Notes: generated by a model from the letters alone, not told the origin. Shown: positions 3,009 through 40,734, counted from the stretch's first letter. The stretch: DNA of 40,734 bases from Candidatus Woesearchaeota archaeon (GCA_964383885.1 CAYLHY010000001.1:1-40734); one strand, 5' to 3'. A program made the numbers and translations.

Positions 3009-3527
3009 TTATCTGAATTGAGTATTAAAGTTATCCTCCATAAATTTAATTATCTCTTCTTTAGTAACCATTTGCCTTTTAGGAATTTTTCCTCTTTTTT
3101 GTTTTTTTATTTTCACTCTTTTGCCTGCTCTTTTAAACACAACTGTTACATCCAATCCCATAACTCCTATTTCCCTCTGATATTCTATTCCTGGAATATC
3201 AAGATACTCTTTAATTCCAAAAGAAAAATGATTTGTTTTTATCTGCTTTTTCTTAAGAGTATTGTCAATTGCAGCAAGCATTTTTTTTAAAATTTCTTCA
3301 GGATTTTTTCTTATTGTAACCATAGCACCAATTTCCAATCCCGGCCTTATGCTAAAAGAAGGAATTCTTTTTTTTGCTTTTGTTTTTACAGGCTTTTTAT
3401 TGCTGAGAAAAGCCAATAGTTTTACACCTCTCTCTAAGTCTTCTCCAGTTCCACTTACACTTAATATCATCTTTTCAATTTTTATCTTTCTCATTGGGTT
3501 TTCTTTATTTATATTCTCTTTGTCCAT
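3009..3527 (-). CDS. rpl5: 50S ribosomal protein uL5
   Basis: [29 protein letters not shown]...[30 protein letters not shown] follows the L5 pattern. Operon position fits. Confidence 0.9.
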
Positions 3528-3537
3528 TTTTTTCTAT

Positions 3538-4185
3538 TCATTCCACCACCATTATTTGTTTAATTAAGACATTGATTTTTTTATCATCAGTTTCTATTTC
3601 AGCCATTTTAAGTTCATTGTTTATTCCTTTTATTACTCCTTTTTTTCCAGAGTGTTTTCCGCTTATAATAATGGCTTTTGAGTTTTCTTTTAATGGAAGG
3701 CACTTCAAAATCTTTTTTTTCTTGAAATCCACTATTACAGAATCATTAACCTTGCATTTTAAATCTGACAAATAATTTCTGCCATCACTTAAATTTAACT
3801 GAACTTTTTTTCCTTTGAGTATTTTTTTATTAATGATTTTAGCTATTTTTTCATTTAATTTTTCTTTTACTTCTTCAACATCAAATTTTCCATGAGTGTT
3901 TAAGATTAATTGATAACAAGTATTTGAAGGAACAATAGTTATTTTATCGAATAATTGTATTCCTGCTCTTTCATCTTTTGCAGGATTTCCATTTACAAGA
4001 ATGTTCTTGTTGTGAATTGCTATTTTAACTTCTTTTCTATTTTGAGCTATTTTCAAAATATCTCTCAATAAAATCAATAATGGAATCCCTTGTTTAACAG
4101 CAAACCTAGGCCTGACTATGTATTTTGTTCCTTTTCTTGGAATAGGCCAATTTTTTGGTATTTTTTGTCTTTTTAAGTGGCTCAT
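3538..4185 (-). CDS. rps4e: 30S ribosomal protein eS4
   Basis: [25 protein letters not shown] is the S4e N-terminus. GGAGG lies upstream. Confidence 0.9.
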
Positions 4186-4631
4186 TTTTCCTCCTTAGTT
4201 TTTTTAATTTCCTTTTCAGTCTCTTTACTTTTTTTAACTTCTTTTTCTTGCTTCTCTGGTTTAATTTGTTTTATTCTTTTTTTATCTTCTAAATTCAACT
4301 CAATTATTTGAAGATTTGACGCTCTTAATGGAACATTAACTTTAGAACCATCTTGTTTTTTAGTTTGTATTCCTTCCACGAAAATCTTTCCATATTTAAC
4401 TTTAACATCAATAACTTTTCCTGTTTTCTTTTTGAATTTTCCCCTCATTATTTTAACTACATCTCCTTTTCTTACTGGAATATTTCTTTTTGAATATTTT
4501 TTTCTTAATTCTTTAGACAGATTCACACTTATGAATTTTCTCTTTAAATGCAACGGAGCATTCGCTAAAAATTTTCTTTGTTTTCTTGGTTGTTTACTTG
4601 ATTTCCATGATGTTGAAAATTCTTTTTTCAT
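4182..4631 (-). CDS. rpl24: 50S ribosomal protein uL24
   Basis: [62 protein letters not shown] is the L24 core. The ATG at 4631 (MKKEFSTSW) is 1 nt after the rpl14 stop. The longer track ORF running to 4736 overlaps rpl14 and is rejected. Confidence 0.88.
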
Positions 4632-28803: not shown

Positions 28804-28875
28804 TCTTCTCTTATTGAAAAATCCGAAACATTTATAAACTATAGTAACTCTTAAGTGACATTAAAATTTCATAAA

Positions 28876-30468
28876 ATGGAAAAAAATTTACTTAAAAAAA
28901 TTTTAGGACTTTTCATAATAATAGCAAGCATGACTTTTGTCAGCGCAGCAACTACTTTTAGTGTTTCTCCTTTAACTCTTACTTTTACTCCTTCAGATAA
29001 TTCTGAAAGCTTTACAATTACTAACCTTGGTTCAAGTCCATTATCTGTTGATTTAAGTCTGCCTACTATTAACGGCATTACTTTCACTGCAAGCGGACAA
29101 ACTTCTGACATAGACCCTTCAAATTCAAGTGTTATTACTATTGAAGCATCTGATATTGACTTCACTGAAATGGAGTTTAATGAAGTTTTAACAGGAGACT
29201 TAATTATCACTGATTCTTCAAATAGTTCTGAGACAGAAATCATTAAAATTGAAATCTCAAAAAATGAGTTTTGCGATTATGGAGATCCTGGAAATGACAT
29301 AAGAGTTGAGATTAAAGATATAACTAATAATGGCATAGGAGATGATGATAAATGGTATCCTTTAGATGAAATTGAAGTTAAGGTAAAAGTTGAAAATAAA
29401 GGAAATGAAGACCTTAAAGATGTAAGCCTTGAGTGGGGGCTTTATGACAAAGATTCTGAAAAATGGATTATTGAAGTTGATGAAGAAGATGAATTTGATT
29501 TAGATGAAGATGATGATGAAACTCTAACTTTTTCATTTACTCTTGATAATGGTGATTTAGATATAGACATTGATGAATTAGAGGATTCAGATTATGTTCT
29601 TTATGTTAGAGCTACTGGGGAGCTTAAAGATTCAGAAGAAATTATTTGTGATTCTGATTCAGACGAAGTTGATATAAATGTTGAAAACGATTATGTTATT
29701 CTTAGTGATATTAAATTAACAGGAGAAACTTTCTGCGGAAGCGTTGTTCAATTAACAGCAAAAATCTGGAATATTGGAGATGATGATCAAGATGATGTTG
29801 AAATAAAAATATTCAGCAAGGAATTGGAAATTAATGAAAGAGTTGAAGTTGGAGATATTGATTCTTTTGATGATAAAAAACTTAGTTTTGAATTTCAAAT
29901 CCCTAAAGGAATAGATGAAAAAATCTATCCTTTAACTTTAGAAGTTTATGACGAGGATGGAGACCTTTATAAGAATTCAGAGGACGATGAATCTGTTTTC
30001 ACTGTTTTATTAAATGTAAGCGGAAATTGTGTAGTAATTCCTCAAGCAAAGATTTTTGCAAGCCTTGAATCAGGAGGAAAAGCAGGAGAAGAAATGAAAA
30101 TAAAAGCTACTATTACAAATGAAGATTCAGTTTTAAAAACTTACACTATTGAAGCAAGTGATTATTCTTCATGGGCAGAACTAATAGATATAATCCCTAA
30201 TGCAGTAACTTTGGGGCCTGGCCAAGCTCAGGATGTTGTCTTAACTTTTAATATTAAAGAAGATGTTGCAGACACTCAAACATTTAATCTTCTTGTAAAA
30301 ACAGAAAAAGGAATCAAAACCCAGCCAGTTGAAGTTTTAGTTGAAACAGGATTCTCTCTTTCAAGATTATTTAAAGGAGAAAATACATATTTATGGGCTC
30401 TTGCTTCTCTTAATGTTCTTTTAATTTTAATAATTATAATAGTTGCAATAAAAGTTGCAAGAAGATAA
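28876..30468 (+). CDS. Secreted, very acidic surface protein with CARDB/Ig-like repeats and a C-terminal TM + KVARR tail (candidate sortase-type substrate)
   Basis: Signal peptide MEKNLLKKILGLFIIIASMTFVSAATTF. Repeated beta-sandwich-like blocks: VKVKVENKGNEDLKDVSLEWGLYD and LTAKIWNIGDDDQDDVEIKIFS. Acidic D/E runs. The extreme C-terminus is ...GENTYLWALASLNVLLILIIIIVAIKVARR. I prefer the ATG at 28876; the track start at 28855 is a GTG. Confidence 0.65.
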   Translation: MEKNLLKKILGLFIIIASMTFVSAATTFSVSPLTLTFTPSDNSESFTITNLGSSPLSVDLSLPTINGITFTASGQTSDIDPSNSSVITIEASDIDFTEMEFNEVLTGDLIITDSSNSSETEIIKIEISKNEFCDYGDPGNDIRVEIKDITNNGIGDDDKWYPLDEIEVKVKVENKGNEDLKDVSLEWGLYDKDSEKWIIEVDEEDEFDLDEDDDETLTFSFTLDNGDLDIDIDELEDSDYVLYVRATGELKDSEEIICDSDSDEVDINVENDYVILSDIKLTGETFCGSVVQLTAKIWNIGDDDQDDVEIKIFSKELEINERVEVGDIDSFDDKKLSFEFQIPKGIDEKIYPLTLEVYDEDGDLYKNSEDDESVFTVLLNVSGNCVVIPQAKIFASLESGGKAGEEMKIKATITNEDSVLKTYTIEASDYSSWAELIDIIPNAVTLGPGQAQDVVLTFNIKEDVADTQTFNLLVKTEKGIKTQPVEVLVETGFSLSRLFKGENTYLWALASLNVLLILIIIIVAIKVARR

Positions 30469-30580
30469 AAATAATTCTAATTAGAAAATAAAATTAAAAT
30501 AAAAATTTAAAATGCTTTTCTATGAATTAATTAAAGAGATTTTAAGGTTTAGTGTATTTGTTTTTAATTCTTTTGATTAA

Positions 30581-30588
30581 TTTAATAA
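30581..30588 (+). promoter_or_regulatory. TATA-like box for the leaderless archaeosortase-like gene
   Basis: TTTAATAA with 22 nt before the ATG at 30611. Confidence 0.4.
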
Positions 30589-30610
30589 ATATTCTTTTTC
30601 TTAATTATTC

Positions 30611-31177
30611 ATGAAATTATTTCAAAAATTTCAAAGATTAAAACTAAAAACTTCTCAATTAGATATTTTTAAAATTTTTTTTAGATATTTAATAATTTTT
30701 GTATCAGGATTATCAGAACTTTATATTTACTATTTAATTTTTACTCCTTTAACTGTTTATTTAGTTTATTTTTTTCTTAAGATTTTTGCAGGAATTTTTA
30801 ATTTTAATGTTCTTCTTGTGAATAATGTTTTTTTTCTAAAAAATTACTCTATAGAGATTATTAAGGCATGCGTAGGAGGTTCAGCATATTTTCTTTTATT
30901 TGCATTAAATCTTTCTATTCCTTTTGAATTTAAAAAAAGACTGAAAGCTTTAGGATTTTCTTTTTCAGTTCTTTTATTATTTAATGTTTTTAGAATCTTA
31001 ATTCTTATTGCTGTGCTTTTTTTAGGAATGTCTTTTTTCAATGAAATTCACAGAATCTTTTGGTATTTTCTCAATATACTGGCAGTAGCTTTAATATGGT
31101 TAGCTGAAATTAAGATTTTTAAAATAAAAGAAATCCCTGTTTATTCTGATTTAAAGTTTTTTTATAAAAAATTATAA
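30611..31177 (+). CDS. Miniature exosortase/archaeosortase-family-like polytopic membrane protein
   Basis: 188 aa with about 5 TM helices. There is an ordered set of Cys (IIKACVGGSAYF), Arg (LLFNVFRILILI, 41 residues after the Cys) and His (FNEIHRIFWYF), each within or next to a TM helix. That matches my recollection of the conserved Cys/Arg/His layout of the exosortase/archaeosortase catalytic region. It lies adjacent to a protein with a TM + basic C-terminal tail. Confidence 0.5.
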   Translation: MKLFQKFQRLKLKTSQLDIFKIFFRYLIIFVSGLSELYIYYLIFTPLTVYLVYFFLKIFAGIFNFNVLLVNNVFFLKNYSIEIIKACVGGSAYFLLFALNLSIPFEFKKRLKALGFSFSVLLLFNVFRILILIAVLFLGMSFFNEIHRIFWYFLNILAVALIWLAEIKIFKIKEIPVYSDLKFFYKKL

Positions 31178-31201: not shown

Positions 31202-31678
31202 TCAAATTGAATAAATTCCCAGAGTTCCTAAAAAAATAATTATTCCAGCTAAAGCTACTCCTGATGCAATAGCCATAATGCTTTTTTTTCTTTCTAATCC
31301 TAAAATCCATGATAATAAACATCCGCTCCATGCTCCTGTTCCAGGAAGAGGTATTGCGACAAAAACTGCTAAAGCAAGAAATCCTTTTTCATTGTATTTT
31401 TTTTCAAATTTATCTACTTTTTTTTGAATTTTTTTTAAATATTTATTGAATAAATATCTGTAAATTTTAATTTCCATAAATTTATCATGAAGATTATCTA
31501 AAAAAAAGAAAATAACAAATATCATTAAAATATTTATTAAAACTATTAAAAGAAAAATTAAAAATACAGGAATACCAGATTCCTTTGCAAAACTTAATGC
31601 CAAAGGCAAACCAGCTCTAAGCTCAGTAACAGGCATAACAGTAAGAATTATTGAATAAATTAATTTTGAAATTTCCAT
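31202..31678 (-). CDS. COG2426 / 'small multidrug export'-family membrane protein
   Basis: MPVTELRAGLPLA near the N-terminus and AIPLPGTGAWSG near the C-terminus are the two hallmark blocks of this family. Overlaps the upstream gene by 19 nt. Confidence 0.65.
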   Translation of the reverse strand: MEISKLIYSIILTVMPVTELRAGLPLALSFAKESGIPVFLIFLLIVLINILMIFVIFFFLDNLHDKFMEIKIYRYLFNKYLKKIQKKVDKFEKKYNEKGFLALAVFVAIPLPGTGAWSGCLLSWILGLERKKSIMAIASGVALAGIIIFLGTLGIYSI

Positions 31679-32421
31679 TCTATATTGTTTGATTCATAGT
31701 ATTTTACAAAAATCTCAGTCATAAGCCTTTCTATAACTTTTAATATCTCGCAGTTGTTTACATTAAGCTCATAACATGCTTTTCCTATTTGATTTATCTC
31801 AGACTTATCTGATTTTTTAACATTAACAAACATATATCTTCCGTAAGCATCACAGGATGCATTTTCATCTTTCACAACTTTAATTCCTAATGCTTTTAAA
31901 TTTAATAAATTAATAACAGCTATTCCTTCATCCCCTTCACAATCAAATTCATCTGACATGTTTAAAACTAATCTGTATTTTTCATCATTGAATTTAATTC
32001 CAAAATTAATTCCATCCTCATTGAAACTCTCATTAAAAATAAACGGAATTTCTTCATCAAGTTTTTCTGGATTATTTCTTAAATAAATATTATATGCCCT
32101 TATTTTTCCTTCATAAGTAACTGGAAAAGGAACCCTGTAAAAAATAAGTTTTCCTTCTTTTACAACTTCTCCATTAATTCCTCTGTATTCAAAATATCTT
32201 CCTGAATTAAGTAAGTATATTATCACAAAAATTAATATCACTAATGCTGCTAAAACAATTAGAACAGTTTTTAAAATATGGTTATATTTTTTTAATTCTT
32301 CTTTGCTTGCTTGTTTTTTTTCAATCTCTCCGCAAACTGTCTTTGTTTTTTCTTTTCCTTTTTTTTCAATTTCAAAAGTCTCGCATACTTTTTCTTTTGA
32401 TTTTTTATTTTTTTTAGGCAT
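31660..32421 (-). CDS. Hypothetical type-II anchored extracellular protein (basic N-tail, 1 TM, Cys-containing ectodomain)
   Basis: K/E-rich cytoplasmic tail, TM helix LKTVLIVLAALVILIFVIIYLL, and an ectodomain with 4 Cys after the TM helix. Shows weak similarity to the next gene upstream. Confidence 0.55.
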   Translation of the reverse strand: MPKKNKKSKEKVCETFEIEKKGKEKTKTVCGEIEKKQASKEELKKYNHILKTVLIVLAALVILIFVIIYLLNSGRYFEYRGINGEVVKEGKLIFYRVPFPVTYEGKIRAYNIYLRNNPEKLDEEIPFIFNESFNEDGINFGIKFNDEKYRLVLNMSDEFDCEGDEGIAVINLLNLKALGIKVVKDENASCDAYGRYMFVNVKKSDKSEINQIGKACYELNVNNCEILKVIERLMTEIFVKYYESNNIEWKFQN

Positions 32422-32512: not shown

Positions 32513-33118
32513 CTAATCAATTCCTAAAATTTTAAATAAAAACTCATCACTAACATTAATTAAATCAGATTTTGGAGCTTGAATAAATACGCAATTATTT
32601 TCCTGCCTTATATTAGTAAAGTTGCTTTCTTGAATTATAATAAAATTATTATCGCAAGTTTTTATAGGATAATCACCTTTACAATTAAGAGAATAATTTG
32701 AATTCAAGCTTGTAAAATTTATAGAACTTTCATTGAGGCATGCAGGCTGTATTCTTTCAACAAAAACATTTAAATTATTATAGATTTCAGCAGAAGCCAA
32801 GTCATCTTCTGATTGAATATACAATGGTTCATCATAATAATAATTAAGAGGATTTACAAAACTATTAATCTCAGCTACTTGAAGAGGATTGTATCTAAAA
32901 GCAAATTGAAAACCATTAATTTCTGCAATCCAGTAATTATTTTGATTAATAAAATCTATTCCATTGTAAACAATTTTTTCTTTTCTGCTTAGTCTGTCAT
33001 TATTAATCATAGCATATCCTAAAATACTCAGAGAAAGCATTCCTATTAAAATAATTCCTGCAATGATTTGATTAAATCTTTTGTTGTTTTTTGATTCTGT
33101 TATGCTTCTTAACTTCAT
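32513..33118 (-). CDS. Hypothetical N-terminally anchored extracellular protein (Cys-containing)
   Basis: TM helix IIAGIILIGMLSLSILGYAMI. Ectodomain with 4 Cys and many NxS/T sequons. TATA-like box 22 nt upstream. Confidence 0.55.
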   Translation of the reverse strand: MKLRSITESKNNKRFNQIIAGIILIGMLSLSILGYAMINNDRLSRKEKIVYNGIDFINQNNYWIAEINGFQFAFRYNPLQVAEINSFVNPLNYYYDEPLYIQSEDDLASAEIYNNLNVFVERIQPACLNESSINFTSLNSNYSLNCKGDYPIKTCDNNFIIIQESNFTNIRQENNCVFIQAPKSDLINVSDEFLFKILGID

Positions 33119-33229: not shown

Positions 33230-35560
33230 TTATTCTACAACGAGTTCAGCACTTGTTGCTCCAGTTCCAATGTATTTCTTTCCAACACTTGTGTCTACTG
33301 TTTGAGTTGTTAGGTATGTTGCAGCAGCAACTGTGTCTGCAGCTTCATAACCTGCAACTAATAGTGCTGTCTTTGAACTGTCGTAAGGACTCTCGACACT
33401 TTGTATCAAGAATTGTCCAGTTCCCACACCTGTAGCAGATGTGAATTCAGCACCACAGTATGAACCACCAAGTATTGTAGCAGCAACTGAGTTAATGCAG
33501 CTTCCACCAACAACAATTAAGTTCTTGTCGCTTACTGAGCTAACTTCACTGTCTTTTACAACAATGTTGCCAAGTCCGTCGCCTTTTGTCAAAGTAACAC
33601 TTGGAGCAGTTACATATACATCAGCGTAGGACTCTTCTCCATGATAAGTGATTGTCGCCCAGTCTTGATCTCCACCAGTGTCATAAACAACTTTTGTAGC
33701 AAGGTCAGAGACAACATAAGACTCATAGTCATCAGTATCATCTATTTCATATTCACTGCTTCCAGTATCTACATCACTTACATGAACTTTGTCACTTGTT
33801 CCAGATTCACCTAAAGTTACATTGAAAGTTTTTCCTTTTGCTAGATTTTCATTTCTATCTTCTTCTGCCATGTATAGATAGAAACTATCATAACCATGTC
33901 CAGCTGTGTTTTGCCAGACTCCAGCATCAGAAACATTAATTTCACCTTTCAATCCTGTAGAGTTAACAACAGTGTGTGGAAGATAAATCTTCAATCCTTC
34001 TTTAGTGTAAAGTGTATTGAAACTACCTCCACTACTTATGTTAAATGTAACCCATTCGTTTGAACCAACATCGTAGATTGAATCTACAGTCAATATAAGA
34101 CTTCCAATGGAACAAGTGTCTCCTTCATTAAGATGTTCACAAACGTCGTCTCCAGTAACTTCATTCTTAATTGTTGTTCTGTTATCATCTTCGTGTTGGC
34201 TTACACTGGCTGATAACAAGTAAGACTCTCCTTCTGAAGTTGCATTCCATGAAGCAACAAACCACCTGTCATTGTTGGTTTCATTAAAAGTAAGCTGTGA
34301 ACCAGACGAGGTTACTAGCTTATTATTTGAATCTTTACCTATTCCTACAAATTCTCCTGTAGAATTTGCATACAGTAGGTAAATGTTCGCTACTCCATCT
34401 TTGATTGGAGCTTCAAGCTTAATTCTATCACTTCCATCATTTTTAATGATGGTTTCTTCTTCAGCAGGGAAGTTCATTCCTCCCATGCTTAATTTCACAG
34501 CTTCAAATCCAGGCATAAGAAGCTCACTATCTGGAGTTACAAATGCTTCATCATCAGTAGTCCACTCAAGAGTTATTTTGTCAAGCTTTCCATTGCTTTG
34601 ACTTAAATAACCTTTGATTTCTTCAATAGTGTCATCATTTAATTCTATTGAAGAACCGTCAGTTATTTTTAATTTACCTGAACCCAAGCTGATTTCAACT
34701 GAACTCACTGTTCCTTGTTTTGACAGATATATAAGTTCTTTGACACCTACATAACTACCATCACTTAATTTCATGGTTTGGCCTTCTTCAAGTCCCTTTA
34801 TGTCTTCACCATCAATGGTCAAATATGCCTTACTTTCTGATATAGTTCGTACATAAACACTTTTTCCTTGAACAGTCTTAGTTTCACCTTCTGTGATCAA
34901 TGCACTTGAAGCAGAATCAAGAAGGGTTGTTGAATTTGCAGATGTACTGCTGTTTACAACATCTAGTATGTAATACTCCTTACCCATTAGAGTGAGTGTA
35001 GTTGTTTCTAAGGCATCTGGTGTGAAATCAGGGTTTGTAGTGAAGTCCAATGTATAGTTTAGGACATGAGTGCTACCAGGAAGCCTGATTCCTATGGTAG
35101 GTGTATCCTCTTTGTAATCTGAATCTGAAAAATGAGTCAGATTAAGATTACTTCCTAAAACTATCTTTTGAGTGAAATCATATTCTTCATTGTTGTCATC
35201 TAGGTATGTTCCATCTGCTAAAAGATTTGGTAGGTTTTCGTCTGTCAAAGACACAACAAAAACATCTTTTGCACTGTCACCTAGATTAAATTTATCTGAA
35301 GATCTTTCTAACTTCACTTTATCCCCTTCTCCTGCAACAGCAGAAGCTCCACCAGTGTAGCTTTCAGATAAATCAGTCTGAATGCTTGTAGCCTGGACAA
35401 AGTCACTGCTATCAACTCCTACTCCTGTACCATAGACTATTGCTACATCAGCTGAACTTCCAGAAACAAATGGTGCTGGATAGTTAGCTGCAGCAACAAC
35501 ACCCATAGCCATTAGAGCAGTTGAAGCAAGCGCTGTAATTTTTTTGAATGAAAATTTCAT
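33230..35560 (-). CDS. S-layer protein (Methanococcales-type S_layer_N / S_layer_C architecture)
   Basis: Signal peptide MKFSFKKITALASTALMAMGVVAAA, then NYPAPFVSGSSADVAIVYGTG. The C-terminal block is NLIVVGGSCINSVAATILGG...KTALLVAGYEAADTVAAATYL. These N- and C-terminal blocks resemble archaeal S-layer proteins of the slmr/slmv type. The protein is T/S/G/D/V-rich, has many N-x-S/T sequons, and its codon usage is visibly G/C-richer than its neighbours. No C-terminal TM. Confidence 0.75.
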   Translation of the reverse strand: MKFSFKKITALASTALMAMGVVAAANYPAPFVSGSSADVAIVYGTGVGVDSSDFVQATSIQTDLSESYTGGASAVAGEGDKVKLERSSDKFNLGDSAKDVFVVSLTDENLPNLLADGTYLDDNNEEYDFTQKIVLGSNLNLTHFSDSDYKEDTPTIGIRLPGSTHVLNYTLDFTTNPDFTPDALETTTLTLMGKEYYILDVVNSSTSANSTTLLDSASSALITEGETKTVQGKSVYVRTISESKAYLTIDGEDIKGLEEGQTMKLSDGSYVGVKELIYLSKQGTVSSVEISLGSGKLKITDGSSIELNDDTIEEIKGYLSQSNGKLDKITLEWTTDDEAFVTPDSELLMPGFEAVKLSMGGMNFPAEEETIIKNDGSDRIKLEAPIKDGVANIYLLYANSTGEFVGIGKDSNNKLVTSSGSQLTFNETNNDRWFVASWNATSEGESYLLSASVSQHEDDNRTTIKNEVTGDDVCEHLNEGDTCSIGSLILTVDSIYDVGSNEWVTFNISSGGSFNTLYTKEGLKIYLPHTVVNSTGLKGEINVSDAGVWQNTAGHGYDSFYLYMAEEDRNENLAKGKTFNVTLGESGTSDKVHVSDVDTGSSEYEIDDTDDYESYVVSDLATKVVYDTGGDQDWATITYHGEESYADVYVTAPSVTLTKGDGLGNIVVKDSEVSSVSDKNLIVVGGSCINSVAATILGGSYCGAEFTSATGVGTGQFLIQSVESPYDSSKTALLVAGYEAADTVAAATYLTTQTVDTSVGKKYIGTGATSAELVVE

Positions 35561-36015: not shown

Positions 36016-36366
36016 ATGGCAAAAACTAAAATCAGAGAAATAACAATCAAAGAATCAAAAGGAGCTTTTAACATCTTTAAAGGTTCTTCAAACAAAAAAG
36101 ATTATGATTTCTCAGGAATTCTTGCCTTAAGACAGCTTTTAAGCAATGAAAAAGCCAGAATTTTACATGTAATTAAAACCCAAAACCCGAAATCAATTTA
36201 TGATTTAGCAAAAAAATTAGGAAGAGGGTTTAAAGCAGTTAACGATGACATAAAATTACTAGAAAAATTCGGGTTTATTGACTTAATTGAAGAAAAAACA
36301 AAAAATAGAATAAGATACAAACCAGAAATAGTTGTAGATACAATAACTATTCATGTAAAAGTTTAG
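36016..36366 (+). CDS. Small winged-helix (ArsR/MarR-like, COG4190-type) transcriptional regulator
   Basis: ILALRQLLSNEKARILHVIKTQNPKSIYDLAKKLGRGFKAVNDDIKLLEKFGFIDL is a classic wHTH segment. The gene converges on the end of the pilin-like operon with a 23-nt gap. Confidence 0.65.
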   Translation: MAKTKIREITIKESKGAFNIFKGSSNKKDYDFSGILALRQLLSNEKARILHVIKTQNPKSIYDLAKKLGRGFKAVNDDIKLLEKFGFIDLIEEKTKNRIRYKPEIVVDTITIHVKV

Positions 36367-36389: not shown

Positions 36390-36872
36390 TTACTCAGAAG
36401 AATAATAAACATTCATTGTTATTTCTACATTTTTAGGTAGTTTTTGTATAGTTCCTTTGAAATTATTAATTTTGTTTCCTTTACTAAAACTCATTAATTC
36501 TTCATTTTCACTAAATATTTTTAATTCATATGCACTAAACATTGTATTTTCAATTTTCCAGCTGTTATCAATTATCTCATAAAGTGTATTTCTTAAAACC
36601 TCGCAGGCCGGTTTCTCATTCAAACAAAATTCATTTTTTTTACAGCTGTATATGAGTTTTTCAACAGATAAATTTCCTAAATAACTTTCACACTCACTAG
36701 TATATTGAAGAACTGCTTGCAAAAAACTCTCAACTTCATAACTCTCTGCTTGTGTTTTACTCGGCCGAGTAAGTGCAAAACTTATGAATACAAGAAGAAT
36801 AATTGAAACTATAATTATTATAAGTCCAAAACCAACCATTTCTTCTTGTGCTTTTTTATTTTTTAAATTCAT
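36390..36872 (-). CDS. Pilin-like (class III signal-like) secreted/anchored protein, 160 aa
   Basis: N-terminus MNLKNKKAQEEMVGFGLIIIIVSIILLVFISFAL. 4 Cys in the ectodomain. Last gene of the operon. Confidence 0.5.
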   Translation of the reverse strand: MNLKNKKAQEEMVGFGLIIIIVSIILLVFISFALTRPSKTQAESYEVESFLQAVLQYTSECESYLGNLSVEKLIYSCKKNEFCLNEKPACEVLRNTLYEIIDNSWKIENTMFSAYELKIFSENEELMSFSKGNKINNFKGTIQKLPKNVEITMNVYYSSE

Positions 36873-36886
36873 TTTTATAAGATAAT

Positions 36887-37432
36887 TTAAGATTTTGATT
36901 CATAACCTATAAATAATTTAGCTAATTCGCATTTATTATCAATCCTTTTTCCACTCACTTTTCTGCATAATGACACAAAATTCCAGATATAATTCCCAGA
37001 AATTTCTTTATCATATAATTTAATATAATTGCAGTTAGGATAGGTTTGAGAAGTGCATTCTTTTTCTTCTTCAATAGGATAAATTTTTCTTATTTCAATA
37101 TTTGTAATGTCTTTCCCCCAAAATCCATTGTATTTTTCTGAAAAATCTTTTAATGCCATAACTTTATCAGCATCTATGCAATTAGTTTTTCCTGTTCCAA
37201 ATGAATTCCCACAAGAAAATTCAGGAGAATTTGCTAATTTTGTAACCAAAAGCATTGCATTTTTTTCTTCAAGAAGTGCAGATGTTTTTTTTAATCCAGA
37301 TAAACTCCATACTAATACAAACATCCCAACAATAATAAGGAAGATAGTAACAGCTATTAGCACAACCATCATCTGCTGAATCTTCATTTGCGCTTTTTTG
37401 CTTTTCATTTTAATTTTTTTTGATTTTACCAT
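36887..37432 (-). CDS. Pilin-like (class III signal-like) secreted/anchored protein, about 181 aa
   Basis: N-terminus MVKSKKIKMKSKKAQMKIQQMMVVLIAVTIFLIIVGMFVLVW. 6 Cys. The ATG at 37432 overlaps the stop of the upstream gene (ATGGTAA coupling). The track start at 37441 is a TTG. Confidence 0.5.
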   Translation of the reverse strand: MVKSKKIKMKSKKAQMKIQQMMVVLIAVTIFLIIVGMFVLVWSLSGLKKTSALLEEKNAMLLVTKLANSPEFSCGNSFGTGKTNCIDADKVMALKDFSEKYNGFWGKDITNIEIRKIYPIEEEKECTSQTYPNCNYIKLYDKEISGNYIWNFVSLCRKVSGKRIDNKCELAKLFIGYESKS

Positions 37433-38370
37433 AGCCTGCAAGTGCTTTTTTGATTTTTTTCATTAATTTCATCAGCAATTAAATCCAAGGAATTTAAATC
37501 TCTTGATGATTCTAGATTATTTGATAAGTCTGTAAGCAGAGATAATTCTGGTTTTACAGAATCTCCGCATCCAATTGTCTCTATTTTATTTAAATATAAA
37601 TCTGCTAAACTTGCAGCTCTTTTCATTAATCTTTTAATCTGGCATTCATAAACTTCTGGATTTGAAAAAATTCCAGCATACATTAAACTATTATCACTAA
37701 AATAAACTTTTCCTTGTTTCTTTTCAACAATTCCTCTTTCATAATCAACTTTTATTTCACACCCTTTACTGCTCCCAAAACATACTTTTTTTGCATTTTT
37801 TTCTTGTATGAATTCTTCACTGCAGTTTGTTAAAAGATTATTTTGATTTAAATTATTGATTTCTTCTTCAACATCTTCTGGAGCATTAATAAAACAATAA
37901 ATTTCATCAAAAGAAATTATGTATGTTAAATCAGCTACTTTAAATGGAAAATAAAAAGGTTTAGTGAATACTAAAAAACTCTTTCCTTCTGAAGGGTTGG
38001 AAGAGAAAATATATTTATTAGAGAAGCCAACGTCAATATCTGTTTCAGTCCATTTATTAAAACTTAATTGAGATACTTGTATTAATTGTCTTCCAAAAAT
38101 TCCTTCAGGATTGCATTTACTGTATATTCTGGTTTTTACAGGAAAACCTAAAATATTTGTCTTAGCCTCTTCAAAACCTGTTTCAAGAGGATTCAACAAA
38201 ATACCTATTTCTTTGCTTGTTTTTGCACTCTGGACTGTTTCTTGAGTTTTAATTAATTTAGTTACTCCGTAAATTGTTAAAAATAATATAAATGCTCCAA
38301 CAATTAGTGCAAATAACCAAGGAAAAGAAAATTGTATAAATGCTTTTTTGTTTTTTGTTTTTTTGCTCAT
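37426..38370 (-). CDS. N-terminally anchored extracellular protein, 314 aa (pilin-like signal variant KKAF)
   Basis: N-terminus MSKKTKNKKAFIQFSFPWLFALIVGAFILFLTIYG. 8 Cys. Confidence 0.5.
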   Translation of the reverse strand: MSKKTKNKKAFIQFSFPWLFALIVGAFILFLTIYGVTKLIKTQETVQSAKTSKEIGILLNPLETGFEEAKTNILGFPVKTRIYSKCNPEGIFGRQLIQVSQLSFNKWTETDIDVGFSNKYIFSSNPSEGKSFLVFTKPFYFPFKVADLTYIISFDEIYCFINAPEDVEEEINNLNQNNLLTNCSEEFIQEKNAKKVCFGSSKGCEIKVDYERGIVEKKQGKVYFSDNSLMYAGIFSNPEVYECQIKRLMKRAASLADLYLNKIETIGCGDSVKPELSLLTDLSNNLESSRDLNSLDLIADEINEKNQKSTCRLW

Positions 38371-38383
38371 TTTACAATCAAAA

Positions 38384-38890
38384 TTATTCAGTAATTGTAA
38401 CTAAATTCTCTCCAGGCATCATTTTAATTGTCATTTTAATTTTGCCTTTTATGTTATCTATGCAAAAAGGATTATCTGCAGAAGTAATTCTCTCAATATT
38501 AATATGTTTTATTTCTTTAGAGTCTAGTCCTTCTCCTGAACCAACAGGGTAAAAAATCATATTCTCGCTTCCAAAATAAGCCATTTTTAAATCACTGTAA
38601 ATGTCTTTATCTCTTCCTCTAGAACTTTGATTAAAATCTACAAAACATACTTTTTTTATTCTTTTTGGAAGAACATATTCATATTCTTGGCTTCCTTGAC
38701 TGCCTCTCCACATTTTATTTATATCATTTTGAAGATTTTCACTGAAGGTGGTTATTTGAATGCTTCTTTGAATTCCTAAAAATTTTTGAATAGCATAAAT
38801 ACTAAACCATAAAAAAACAACTATGAGTATTATTGAAAAAATCATTCCAAAAGACAACTTCATCTGTGCTTTTTTTAATCCTCTTTTCAT
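38384..38890 (-). CDS. Pilin-like (class III signal-like) secreted/anchored protein, 168 aa
   Basis: N-terminus MKRGLKKAQMKLSFGMIFSIILIVVFLWFSIYA. 2 Cys. Confidence 0.5.
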   Translation of the reverse strand: MKRGLKKAQMKLSFGMIFSIILIVVFLWFSIYAIQKFLGIQRSIQITTFSENLQNDINKMWRGSQGSQEYEYVLPKRIKKVCFVDFNQSSRGRDKDIYSDLKMAYFGSENMIFYPVGSGEGLDSKEIKHINIERITSADNPFCIDNIKGKIKMTIKMMPGENLVTITE

Positions 38891-38934
38891 AAATTAAAAA
38901 GAAATTCAATACTTATAAAGTTATTTCCTAATCT

Positions 38935-40734
38935 TTAATCTAGTGGTTTTATTATTGCTGAACATTTATTAGGAGCAGGCCTGTTTCCGTATTCATCCTG
39001 ACATTTAATATAGAATTTTGTCTTAGTGCTCCAAGTTGTGAAATGACTGTTTTCTTCTCCTGATGTCATTGGCAAGCCATCTTCAAATAAATATCCGCAA
39101 TCCTGAACATCATAGACGCATTTTGCAGGTTCATTTGTAATTATTTTTAGATAATTTTCTTCTTTATAAGCTCTTGTTATAATTGGAGGTTCTGAATCAG
39201 ATTCAACTTCAAAGCTGATTTTTTTAGTGTCTGAATTTCCTCCAACATCCACACATCTTATGTAATATTCATACTCTCCTTCTGGAAGATACAAGTCTGT
39301 AGAGTGAGTGTAAGAAGCTGTGTTGAAAAATTCTATGTTAATGTTATTTTCATCTTCTCCATAATAGCATATAGATTCTCCTTCATTGTATCCTGCAGAA
39401 GTTTCAACTTTCAATGTTACTTTTACAGATTCAGTTGAATCTTTTATAGTTGTGTCGTTTGGTTCTACGCTGTCTATATATAACGGCCTTGTTCCTATTA
39501 TTGTGAATTCATAAGACTCTGAATTAGTATTTCTCTGACTTTCTGAATTTGTTCCTTCTAATTGAGGCTGATCCTTGCATCTAAAGTAAAATTTGTTTTC
39601 TTGATTGTCTTTTATTCCTGTAAGAGTGGTTTTGCAGACATAGACATTTCGGTTATTTACAATTCTGAAGTCTCCTATATTTTGAGCATCAGAACAATCC
39701 ATTTCATTTGGCATGTTTTCATAGCTTTCATCATTTGTACTCCATTTGCAATTACTTGGTTCATTTATGTAGAGTTCTAAATCAAGAGTATCTTGATTAA
39801 ATGAAATAGGAACATTATTCCTTATGTTAGTTCCAACAATAAGAGGTGGAGTTGTATCTGGACCAGGGTCTACGCAGTATTTAAATACAAAATTAGCTTC
39901 ATTAGAATTACCATTTGCATCTTGACATTTAATGTAGATTGTTTCTTGTCCATTGTTTCTTAATACTAATCCTTCACTTCTTGTATTATTTGGTCCAGGA
40001 AGACTCATTGTTATTGAATGATTATATTTGAAGTTGCCTCCTCCAAGGTCAAACCTCATTTCATCAAAACTTCTTTTTCTAAAATAATCTGCTTTACATT
40101 TTGCAGGTTCATCTAATTTTATTCCAAATCTTAGAGGAGTGAATGCAGGAGCACATCCATCTCCTGAACGAGAATTTTCATAAACAACTATGACTCCTCT
40201 GTCAGGAGGAGAGACTGCATTATCAGGAGTATAAGAATATCCATCTAATAAAAATTCTGGATTAGCTTCAATTACAGGAGGTTTAACGTCATTAGGATTA
40301 ATCCAGACACACATTGCTTCCCCAGAAGCTTCATCGTTTAATAATTCACATGCTTGTCCAAGACTCTTACACTGATAAATACTGCATGGAAGTTCTTGTT
40401 TATTGCATAATTCACAGTTTTTTCCTTTAGTTTGAGCTTGCCACGGCTTGCAATCAAATTCTATAATCCTATAATAAACTTCTTCATATTCATGAGCATA
40501 CCAATAAAGAGCAAAAGCCATTCCAATACCAAATCCCCACCACCCAGCAGCTGTAGAACTTTTTCCAAAATATCCTTTCGCAAGGGTGTAGGTAAATTTC
40601 CCCATACCTAACCCCCAACCAGCTGCTTTACTTAGTGCATTTACTTCATTTTCTTCTAATCCCAATGTTGGACCAAGCCATTTAACTGCATAATATCCTG
40701 CAACATACCATTGCACACCTGAGAAAAAAGCATC
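38935..40734 (-). CDS. Large membrane-anchored extracellular protein with a Cys knot and four Cys-framed repeats (N-terminus beyond the window)
   Basis: The reading frame stays open upstream of the track's GTG at 40716 through to base 40734 (DAFFSG-VQWY...), so the gene is edge-truncated. It has Gly/aromatic hydrophobic segments (AAGWWGFGIGMAFALYWYA). A 7-Cys cluster follows (CKPW...CELCNKQELPCSIYQCKSLGQACELL...MCVW). Then four modules, each ending [FY]Y[FI][KR]C.D..GN. Confidence 0.6.
   Translation of the reverse strand, partial: DAFFSGVQWYVAGYYAVKWLGPTLGLEENEVNALSKAAGWGLGMGKFTYTLAKGYFGKSSTAAGWWGFGIGMAFALYWYAHEYEEVYYRIIEFDCKPWQAQTKGKNCELCNKQELPCSIYQCKSLGQACELLNDEASGEAMCVWINPNDVKPPVIEANPEFLLDGYSYTPDNAVSPPDRGVIVVYENSRSGDGCAPAFTPLRFGIKLDEPAKCKADYFRKRSFDEMRFDLGGGNFKYNHSITMSLPGPNNTRSEGLVLRNNGQETIYIKCQDANGNSNEANFVFKYCVDPGPDTTPPLIVGTNIRNNVPISFNQDTLDLELYINEPSNCKWSTNDESYENMPNEMDCSDAQNIGDFRIVNNRNVYVCKTTLTGIKDNQENKFYFRCKDQPQLEGTNSESQRNTNSESYEFTIIGTRPLYIDSVEPNDTTIKDSTESVKVTLKVETSAGYNEGESICYYGEDENNINIEFFNTASYTHSTDLYLPEGEYEYYIRCVDVGGNSDTKKISFEVESDSEPPIITRAYKEENYLKIITNEPAKCVYDVQDCGYLFEDGLPMTSGEENSHFTTWSTKTKFYIKCQDEYGNRPAPNKCSAIIKPLD

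Follow-up and report, generated by a model that had tools for sequence, protein, structure and literature searches.

The DNA studied here, referred to as the window, is the whole 40,734-bp contig CAYLHY010000001.1 of a Candidatus Woesearchaeota archaeon (assembly GCA_964383885.1), with a G+C content of ~28% across its entire length. Its end is occupied by five tightly packed minus-strand genes, called B2b, C, D, E and F in the direction of transcription, which encode a truncated large membrane protein and four small proteins that each begin with a short basic leader, a K-K-A-(Q/F) motif and a hydrophobic helix (Table 1). The intergenic gaps B2b-C, C-D, D-E and E-F are 44, 13, -7 and 14 nucleotides (nt). 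A preliminary description of this DNA had reported the same genes, gaps and N-termini and had placed the upstream limit of the operon beyond base 40734, all of which was confirmed: the contig edge cuts through a nine-gene cluster, A1-B1-A2-B2a-B2b-C-D-E-F, with four genes lying 5' of B2b. The large protein, which had been taken for the head of the operon, is the product of gene 5 of 9 and has 736 amino acids (aa) at full length. The cysteine counts of the four small products are all even, as described, except that the last two had been listed the wrong way round with respect to the N-termini.

Relatives of B2b were sought in one genome per GTDB species and were found in 537 species genomes. 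The best 80 of the 537 were examined; open reading frames (ORFs) were called in these 80 loci and assigned to families by phmmer. The labels of the 80 are all Woesearchaeota, Pacearchaeota or Nanoarchaeota/Nanoarchaeia. On long related contigs the gene order is PCNA, a small helix-turn-helix (HTH) gene, A1, B1, A2, B2a, B2b, C, D, E, F, a convergent winged helix-turn-helix (wHTH) gene and an S-layer gene, and the upstream proteins measure ~260 (A1), ~1,230 (B1), ~260 (A2), ~525 (B2a) and ~710-760 aa (B2b). All of C, D, E, F, wHTH and S-layer were present in this order in 39 of the 43 loci for which 6 kb or more was available downstream of B2b, and co-occurrence across related genomes, on which the preliminary description had staked its five-gene unit, was thereby established. 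Upstream, A1, B1, A2 and B2a were all present in 21 of the 33 loci with at least 9 kb available, and most others show A2 and B2a. Another assembly contig, L003, carries B2b in an identical full-length copy (P0001, 736 aa). Ahead of this copy lie a Cys-rich protein of 563 aa, one of 252 aa that starts MKKRGQITVFVILAI, and the C-terminal end of a protein larger still. The median identity of orthologues to the window proteins is 45-56% over the full length, compared with 44% over 62% of the length for the S-layer protein; the wHTH protein is the most conserved of the neighbourhood (72%). In a large protein library, relatives of D form 706 clusters at 50% identity (E-value at most 1e-3). B1, their paralogue, matches both B2a and B2b and is a fusion of the two, which argues that B2a and B2b work together. 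Judged by these sequence comparisons, the cluster is a nine-gene cell-envelope operon core to Woesearchaeales and Pacearchaeales, of which the window carries the distal half.

Some loci depart from this arrangement. Unrelated stretches of 1-5 kb lie between operon genes, mostly between B2b and C (16 loci) and between B2a and B2b (15 loci); examples are L010 (11956-16334), L032 (4608-10010), L019 (12195-15447) and L007 (12166-14829). These inserts were considered as hidden components and rejected, being unrelated cargo (tRNA-synthetase-like ORFs, Bro-N, a CARDB protein and unknowns). In three loci (L030, L057 and L073) no C-F genes were found in the ~9-10 kb downstream of the B2b-type gene, and in L030 the A1 gene is inverted and lies downstream of B2b. 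The cluster is therefore split or rearranged at times.

A conserved site marks the junction between leader and hydrophobic segment. On this junction 254 orthologues from five families (A1, A2, C, E and F) were aligned. Position -1 was Gly, Ala or Ser in 254/254 sequences: G15/A8/S1 in A1, G39/A6/S1 in A2, G47/A14/S4 in C, A34/G24/S3 in E and A31/G22/S5 in F. Position +1 was Gln in 246/254 (97%), comprising 24/24 for A1, 46/46 for A2, 57/65 for C, 61/61 for E and 58/58 for F. Positions -2 and -3 are mainly Lys or Arg, and the stretch before them varies freely, in length as in composition. Past the junction the sequence is kept within a family and differs from one family to another: QVTIFIII in A1 and A2, QMKLSFGMIFS in C, Q(L/M)KIQQMAFML in E and QEEMVGFALII in F, where +2/+3 are E-E in 57-58 of the 58 orthologues. 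In the upstream paralogues A1 and A2, which have the uncharged canonical form K/R-G/A-Q-V/I-T-I-F-I-I, the hydrophobic run comes directly after the site; in C, E and F it is set off from the site by 2-5 residues that are polar or charged (MK, MKIQQ, EE). Outside these families, [KR]-[GAS]-Q followed by a hydrophobic run was seen in 5 ORFs among the 3,631 ORFs of 86 loci, and one of the 5 is an A-family relative.

The geometry is that of class III (prepilin) signals, as the preliminary description had proposed, and the link it drew between a +1 Gln and the EppA subclass is in accord with published work. A Gln at +1 is required by EppA, and FlaK does not process substrates with this residue (PMC4371748). 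The processing sites of the M. maripaludis EppA substrates EpdA-E are RAQI, KGQV, KGQL and KGQI (PMC4371748), in leaders of 5-13 aa with a Glu at +5 (PMC3875500); the same tetrads (KGQV, RAQI) occur at the junctions described here. In our alignments the conservation at -1/+1 is far tighter than a plain membrane anchor would need. An anchor needs only basic residues, and an invariant small residue followed by Gln is kept in five otherwise differing families; for this reason the leaders are most likely processed at [KR]-[GAS]/Gln, with the conserved site as the main argument. Cleavage by Sec signal peptidase I was considered and rejected, as the motif precedes the hydrophobic region and does not follow it. 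Since the neighbouring S-layer protein has an ordinary Sec signal, the operon proteins appear to use a distinct signal type.

A doubled leader was observed in 16 of 260 pilin-like genes. It consists of M-K..K-[GA]-Q, ~15 basic residues with a K-I-S-x-L-S-like core, and K-[KR]-[GAS]-Q. In L046 it is present in three families of one genome (C, 1655-2197; E, 3120-3689; F, 3667-4197), and further cases are found in L012, L049, L029, L032 and L038 and in proteins P0124-P0126. The doubling may represent either processing sites in tandem or the insertion of a short repeat.

Beyond the signal the small proteins have little in common. Comparison by hhalign related A1 to A2 (100% probability), C to D (94.5%) and A1 to F (85%, over the first 56 columns), and no similarity between families was left when the first 42 residues were removed. 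Families that are alike at the N-terminus and unrelated in their globular parts are what one usually sees in pilins. An AlphaFold (AF2) model of E was built from an alignment of 11 sequences, the ectodomain search having given ten E-family proteins, all of at least 217 aa. The model (mean predicted local distance difference test (pLDDT) score 74.6) consists of a helix at residues 12-68 (57 residues, starting 3 before the Gln), two short helices and a four-stranded sheet (109-116, 136-141, 147-160 and 164-177). This predicted topology agrees with that of a type IV pilin.

Some E orthologues carry 150-270-aa inserts between the strands or a C-terminal extension on the same scaffold (P0121, 451 aa; P0122, 333 aa; P0130, 428 aa). 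One of the inserts is very Cys-rich, and an extension contains a GDSSGS motif. Neither the inserts nor the extension had a Pfam or PDB sequence match, and a von Willebrand factor A (vWA) domain, considered for P0121 on the basis of the GDSSGS motif, was unsupported by Pfam and PDB sequences. The added domains recall modular pilins (PMC8179133).

The AF2 model of B2b was built from 120 sequences (mean pLDDT 85.5). Its N-terminal part contains a membrane helix (13-31), a small beta domain and a disordered linker; next come helices 136-157, 165-191 and 197-219, then a Cys knot, and finally four beta sandwiches. Because the middle helix of the three is charged and the disulfide-rich immunoglobulin (Ig)-like array must be extracellular, B2b would cross the membrane three times, with a connector in the cytoplasm, and would display its Cys knot and its four Ig-like domains on the outside. 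Across the 120 homologues identity is ~50%; Cys residues 244, 247, 254, 259, 266 and 279 are invariant and Cys232 is nearly so. Foldseek grouped the array with adhesion molecules made of tandem Ig/fibronectin type III (FN3) domains, with repeats of RTX adhesins and with the GhpA grappling hook (E-values 3e-12 to 1e-8). The Big_13 model, whose cut-off is 27 bits, scored 20.9 bits in the window protein and 28.4 bits in its orthologue from L005. B2b resembles Ig-like repeat adhesins of the Big_13/DUF4625 type in its four beta-sandwich domains, but differs from them in being anchored by three helices near the N-terminus, in its conserved Cys knot and in its high conservation, whereas such adhesins evolve fast.

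Table 1. Features of the envelope operon and its surroundings in the window (positions counted from the first base; a slash in a protein sequence marks the -1/+1 junction)
Feature	Position	Strand	Details
B2b	38935..40734, runs past window end	-	last 599 codons and stop of a 736-aa membrane protein
C	38384..38890	-	168 aa, pilin-like, MKRGLKKA/QMKLSFGMIFSIIL..., 2 Cys
D	37426..38370	-	314 aa, pilin-like, MSKKTKNKKA/FIQFSFPWLFALIVG..., 8 Cys, conserved C-terminal C-(K/R)-L-W
E	36887..37432	-	181 aa from ATG at 37432, pilin-like, MVKSKKIKMKSKKA/QMKIQQMMVVLIAV..., 6 Cys
F	36390..36872	-	160 aa, pilin-like, MNLKNKKA/QEEMVGFGLIIIIV..., 4 Cys
C leader	38867..38890	-	MKRGLKKA, 8 aa; proposed cleavage after Ala8
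D leader	38341..38370	-	10 aa; small residue, then aromatic instead of Gln
E leader	37391..37432	-	14 aa from ATG at 37432; 6 aa with internal ATG
F leader	36849..36872	-	8 aa; from family alignment on the junction
B2b hydrophobic helix	40675..40734	-	residues 138-157 in window (helix starts at 136, outside); AF2; putative second membrane pass, from aromatic/hydrophobic sequence
B2b charged amphipathic helix	40573..40653	-	residues 165-191; AF2; putative cytoplasmic connector
B2b hydrophobic helix	40489..40557	-	residues 197-219; AF2; putative third membrane pass
B2b Cys-rich knot	40303..40452	-	residues 232-281, CxPWxAxTxGxxCxxCN...PCSxYxCxSLGQAC; 120 homologues
B2b Ig/FN3-like domains	38938..40299	-	four beta sandwiches, each with conserved Cys; AF2 strands 292-732, pLDDT >90
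D stop/E start overlap	37426..37432	-	ATGGTAA; NTGGTRR in 59/61 loci
TATA-like motif	38913..38919	-	TTTATAA, 29 nt 5' of C start; possible internal C-D-E-F promoter, suggestive only
wHTH gene	36016..36366	+	HVO_A0114 family; PF25212, E-value 2.8e-16; syntenic with operon
S-layer-type gene	33230..35560	-	ordinary Sec-type signal peptide; PF05124 S_layer_C, E-value 4e-8; syntenic neighbour, context only
Signal-anchored protein gene	32513..33118	-	Cys-containing, no family
Signal-anchored protein gene	31660..32421	-	Cys-containing, no family
PACE-CTERM and pacearchaeosortase genes	28855..31177	+	putative S-layer protein, 537 aa (NF033506, E-value 1.6e-135), then sortase, 188 aa (NF033505, E-value 8.5e-50)

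The last 7 nt of the D gene place the start codon of E over a Trp-stop sequence. This overlap is kept as NTGGTRR in nearly all of the related loci compared, which argues that it is not due to chance, and from this conservation D and E are predicted to be translationally coupled. The preliminary description had taken one transcript for all five genes as most likely, on the strength of the tight gaps. C-D-E-F may instead form a transcription unit of their own, since a TATA-like signal precedes C and the space between B2b and C is the commonest point of cargo insertion. TATA-like motifs are enriched 50-60 nt 5' of the Gln codon in C, A1 and A2, and not in D, E and F.

The wHTH gene converges on the 3' end of the operon, as first described. 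Beyond it, the window contains the S-layer-type gene and, just downstream of this, two genes for signal-anchored, Cys-containing proteins; L004 and L005 have genes of similar size at the same spot, a likeness of size and position. Beyond these lie, on the plus strand, a gene for a PACE-CTERM putative S-layer protein and, right after it, a pacearchaeosortase gene, a known pair of sorting substrate and enzyme. The pair places the contig among Pacearchaeota-type organisms and makes the region an envelope gene island.

The cluster probably builds a cell-surface structure. The reading that we favour, at somewhat better than even chances, is that C, D, E and F, together with A1 and A2, are type IV pilin-like proteins bearing class III leaders that form a short filament, pseudopilus or tip-like complex with B2b as a partner. 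The small proteins would be inserted via the hydrophobic segment, and an EppA-like peptidase, encoded elsewhere, would trim the leader at [KR]-[GAS]/Gln; the new N-terminal Gln could cyclise. The mature N-terminal helices would then bundle, bringing the unrelated, disulfide-stabilised ectodomains into one complex. Speculatively, the Glu-Glu at +2/+3 of F, set against the Lys at +3 of C and E, could order the subunits. B2b would act with B2a as the non-pilin partner, either base or adhesin, and the ATPase, platform and peptidase would be encoded elsewhere in the genome. The pilus-like or adhesion apparatus proposed in the preliminary description is partly supported: the EppA-type site speaks for it, as do the model of E, with its helix and sheet, and the array of Ig-like domains in B2b, but no match to a pilin came to light, nor did machinery genes in the window ORFs scanned and the loci compared.

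Among known systems the closest are the Epd pili of M. maripaludis (archaeal type IV filament system 1), which have in common with the cluster a basic leader ending in Gly or Ala, a +1 Gln and identical junction tetrads, as well as several different pilin-like genes per operon, including large ones with extra domains. They differ in their +5 Glu; the present proteins have no +5 Glu, carry charged residues at +2/+3 in C, E and F, do not match DUF361/Class_IIIsignal, and have unrelated, Cys-rich ectodomains. The epd cluster also holds the genes for the ATPase, platform and EppA, unlike the present one. The polytopic B proteins have no known Epd counterpart. In general architecture the cluster resembles the minor-pilin and pseudopilin tips of bacteria (FimU-PilVWX with PilY1; GspH-I-J-K): four small subunits, one of them larger (D), stand beside a large non-pilin surface protein, and both have shared N-terminal helices with dissimilar globular parts. 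The likeness is an analogy of architecture only. Homology to these tips was not detectable; B2b is membrane-integral with Ig-like domains and not a beta-propeller adhesin, and the leader here is of the archaeal type.

Several observations weigh against this filament reading. D departs from the signal: its family has K-K-G/A, then Y/F/L, then x-Q-I-S-F-x-W-L-F-A, so that among the window products a +1 Gln is found in C, E and F, and the 314-aa D has an aromatic residue in its place. Charged residues follow directly at +2/+3 in C, E and F, and the residue at +5 is Phe in A1 and A2, Ser in C, Gln in E and Val in F, never the Glu of Epd leaders. Searches with the full proteins and their N-terminal 60-mers gave no PF04021, PF07790 or TIGR02537-type match at E-values up to 10; the best N-terminal score in that search was to the prepilin-type model NF007660 (E-value 0.06). 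The fold model covers one of the four small proteins, E, and is of moderate confidence, being derived from 11 sequences and with a pLDDT of 58-64 at the junction of helix and domain. Foldseek with this model found nothing significant in the PDB. When profiles of each family (C, D, E, F and A), and one profile joining their N-termini, were compared with PDB sequences, nothing significant and no solved pilin was retrieved; the best such match was PilE1, for C, with an E-value of 1. The preliminary description had recognised none of the ectodomains, and indeed they belong to no characterised family; the fold model and the PDB profiles added no pilin relative.

The missing machinery belongs with these points. 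Peptidase_A24, T2SSE and T2SSF were absent from the 27 window ORFs scanned against Pfam (some small ORFs fell outside the scan), which bears out the earlier statement that the window holds no assembly ATPase, platform protein or prepilin peptidase. Nor were such genes seen in the flanks of the 80 related loci, and neither a secretion-ATPase Walker A motif nor an A24-type GxGD motif was present in the ORFs of the 86 loci. Two nanoarchaea with a secretion ATPase have no recognised peptidase (Makarova et al. 2016), and components of type IV pili have been said to be missing in DPANN (2020 preprint). On the other side, an Epd-type system 1 has been reported in DPANN (2026 preprint), FlaIJK in a sister order of Nanoarchaeia (PMC8561730), and secretion ATPases in nanoarchaea whose pilins escaped identification (Makarova et al. 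2016), which makes the machinery plausible in this lineage.

The cluster proteins also lack names. No Pfam or NCBIfam model reached its threshold with C, D, E, F, A or B2a, and none of the nine proteins matches a Pfam, NCBIfam, PHROG or PDB sequence family; the small products thus stand outside any characterised family, in line with the preliminary description. C-F and the upstream proteins are nameless in every annotation source, and no description of the cluster was found in the literature.

Many of the same observations would suit a different structure. The small proteins could be uncleaved type II signal anchors that form, with the B proteins, a fixed envelope complex (an S-layer anchor or spacer, or a pore) assembled by Sec/YidC and without any link to type IV systems, in which K-[GAS]-Q is an inherited interface or contact feature. 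We regard this as possible, at clearly less than even chances. Such a complex fits the lack of ATPase, platform and peptidase genes in the scanned window ORFs and loci, the failure to match pilins by sequence or by fold, and the charged residues right after the Gln. It also fits the tight synteny with the S-layer gene and the PACE-CTERM/pacearchaeosortase pair, and the high and uniform identity of 45-56%, no lower than the S-layer protein's, suits a structural machine better than a variable adhesin. A position at the S-layer would have a parallel in ArlF and ArlG, pilin-like archaellum proteins that act there. Anchors, however, have no need of an invariant small residue at -1 and a Gln at +1, and these are kept in five families that differ afterwards. 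The motif is moreover a known peptidase site, while the leader varies freely in length and bears two tandem motifs in some of the genes.

Less probable still, and in our view unlikely, is a self-contained, lineage-specific organelle. Here the six pilin-like subunits would sit on B1 and B2a/B2b, which would replace or join the ATPase and platform, and a fixed stalk would carry the Ig-like arrays through the S-layer to hosts.

We consider it doubtful that the small proteins, processed at their class III signals, form no filament at all and make up a bindosome-like tethered assembly with binding or enzymatic function in uptake or host contact. The evidence from the signal is the same as for the pilin-like filament. 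The large (up to ~270 aa), diverse and Cys-rich ectodomains would suit such an assembly, and no candidate for a small major pilin was seen in the cluster. The Sulfolobus bindosome likewise has class III-type leaders on sizeable extracellular proteins and does not require a long filament (PMC4371748), but a substrate-binding domain is lacking here, no ectodomain matches a substrate-binding or enzyme family, and the PibD substrates of the bindosome have Ala, Ile, Leu and similar residues at +1, not Gln. Four small subunits with a large partner also resemble minor-pilin sets more than they do binding proteins.

A provirus or mobile-element module for entry, fusion or receptor binding is very unlikely. 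In its favour, none of the nine proteins has a known family, Ig-like and Cys-rich domains occur among them, and variable cargo, including a Bro-N protein, lies between the genes in some genomes. Against it, the cluster keeps the same position and order beside PCNA, S-layer and housekeeping genes in dozens of species, its base composition is that of the rest of the contig, and its proteins have no PHROG match and no relative among 2.9 million IMG/VR contigs.

Taken on sequence comparison, then, the feature is real and strongly conserved, a pilin-like variety within the type IV pilin and filament kind that falls in no described family. The orders Woesearchaeales and Pacearchaeales rank with the most widespread archaea not yet in culture, and dependence on hosts is assumed for them; to our knowledge, there is no account of how their cells touch anything. 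Set in a fixed island of envelope genes, the cluster offers six families of candidate pilin-like proteins together with three large proteins of the surface, and these proteins are as conserved as the S-layer protein, or more so. They are the first concrete candidates for a surface apparatus in two very large uncultured archaeal orders, and they would extend the EppA-type +1 Gln signal well beyond the methanogens. If the self-contained organelle were true, archaea would have a surface structure of a new class, one that descends from type IV pilins but works in a different mode.

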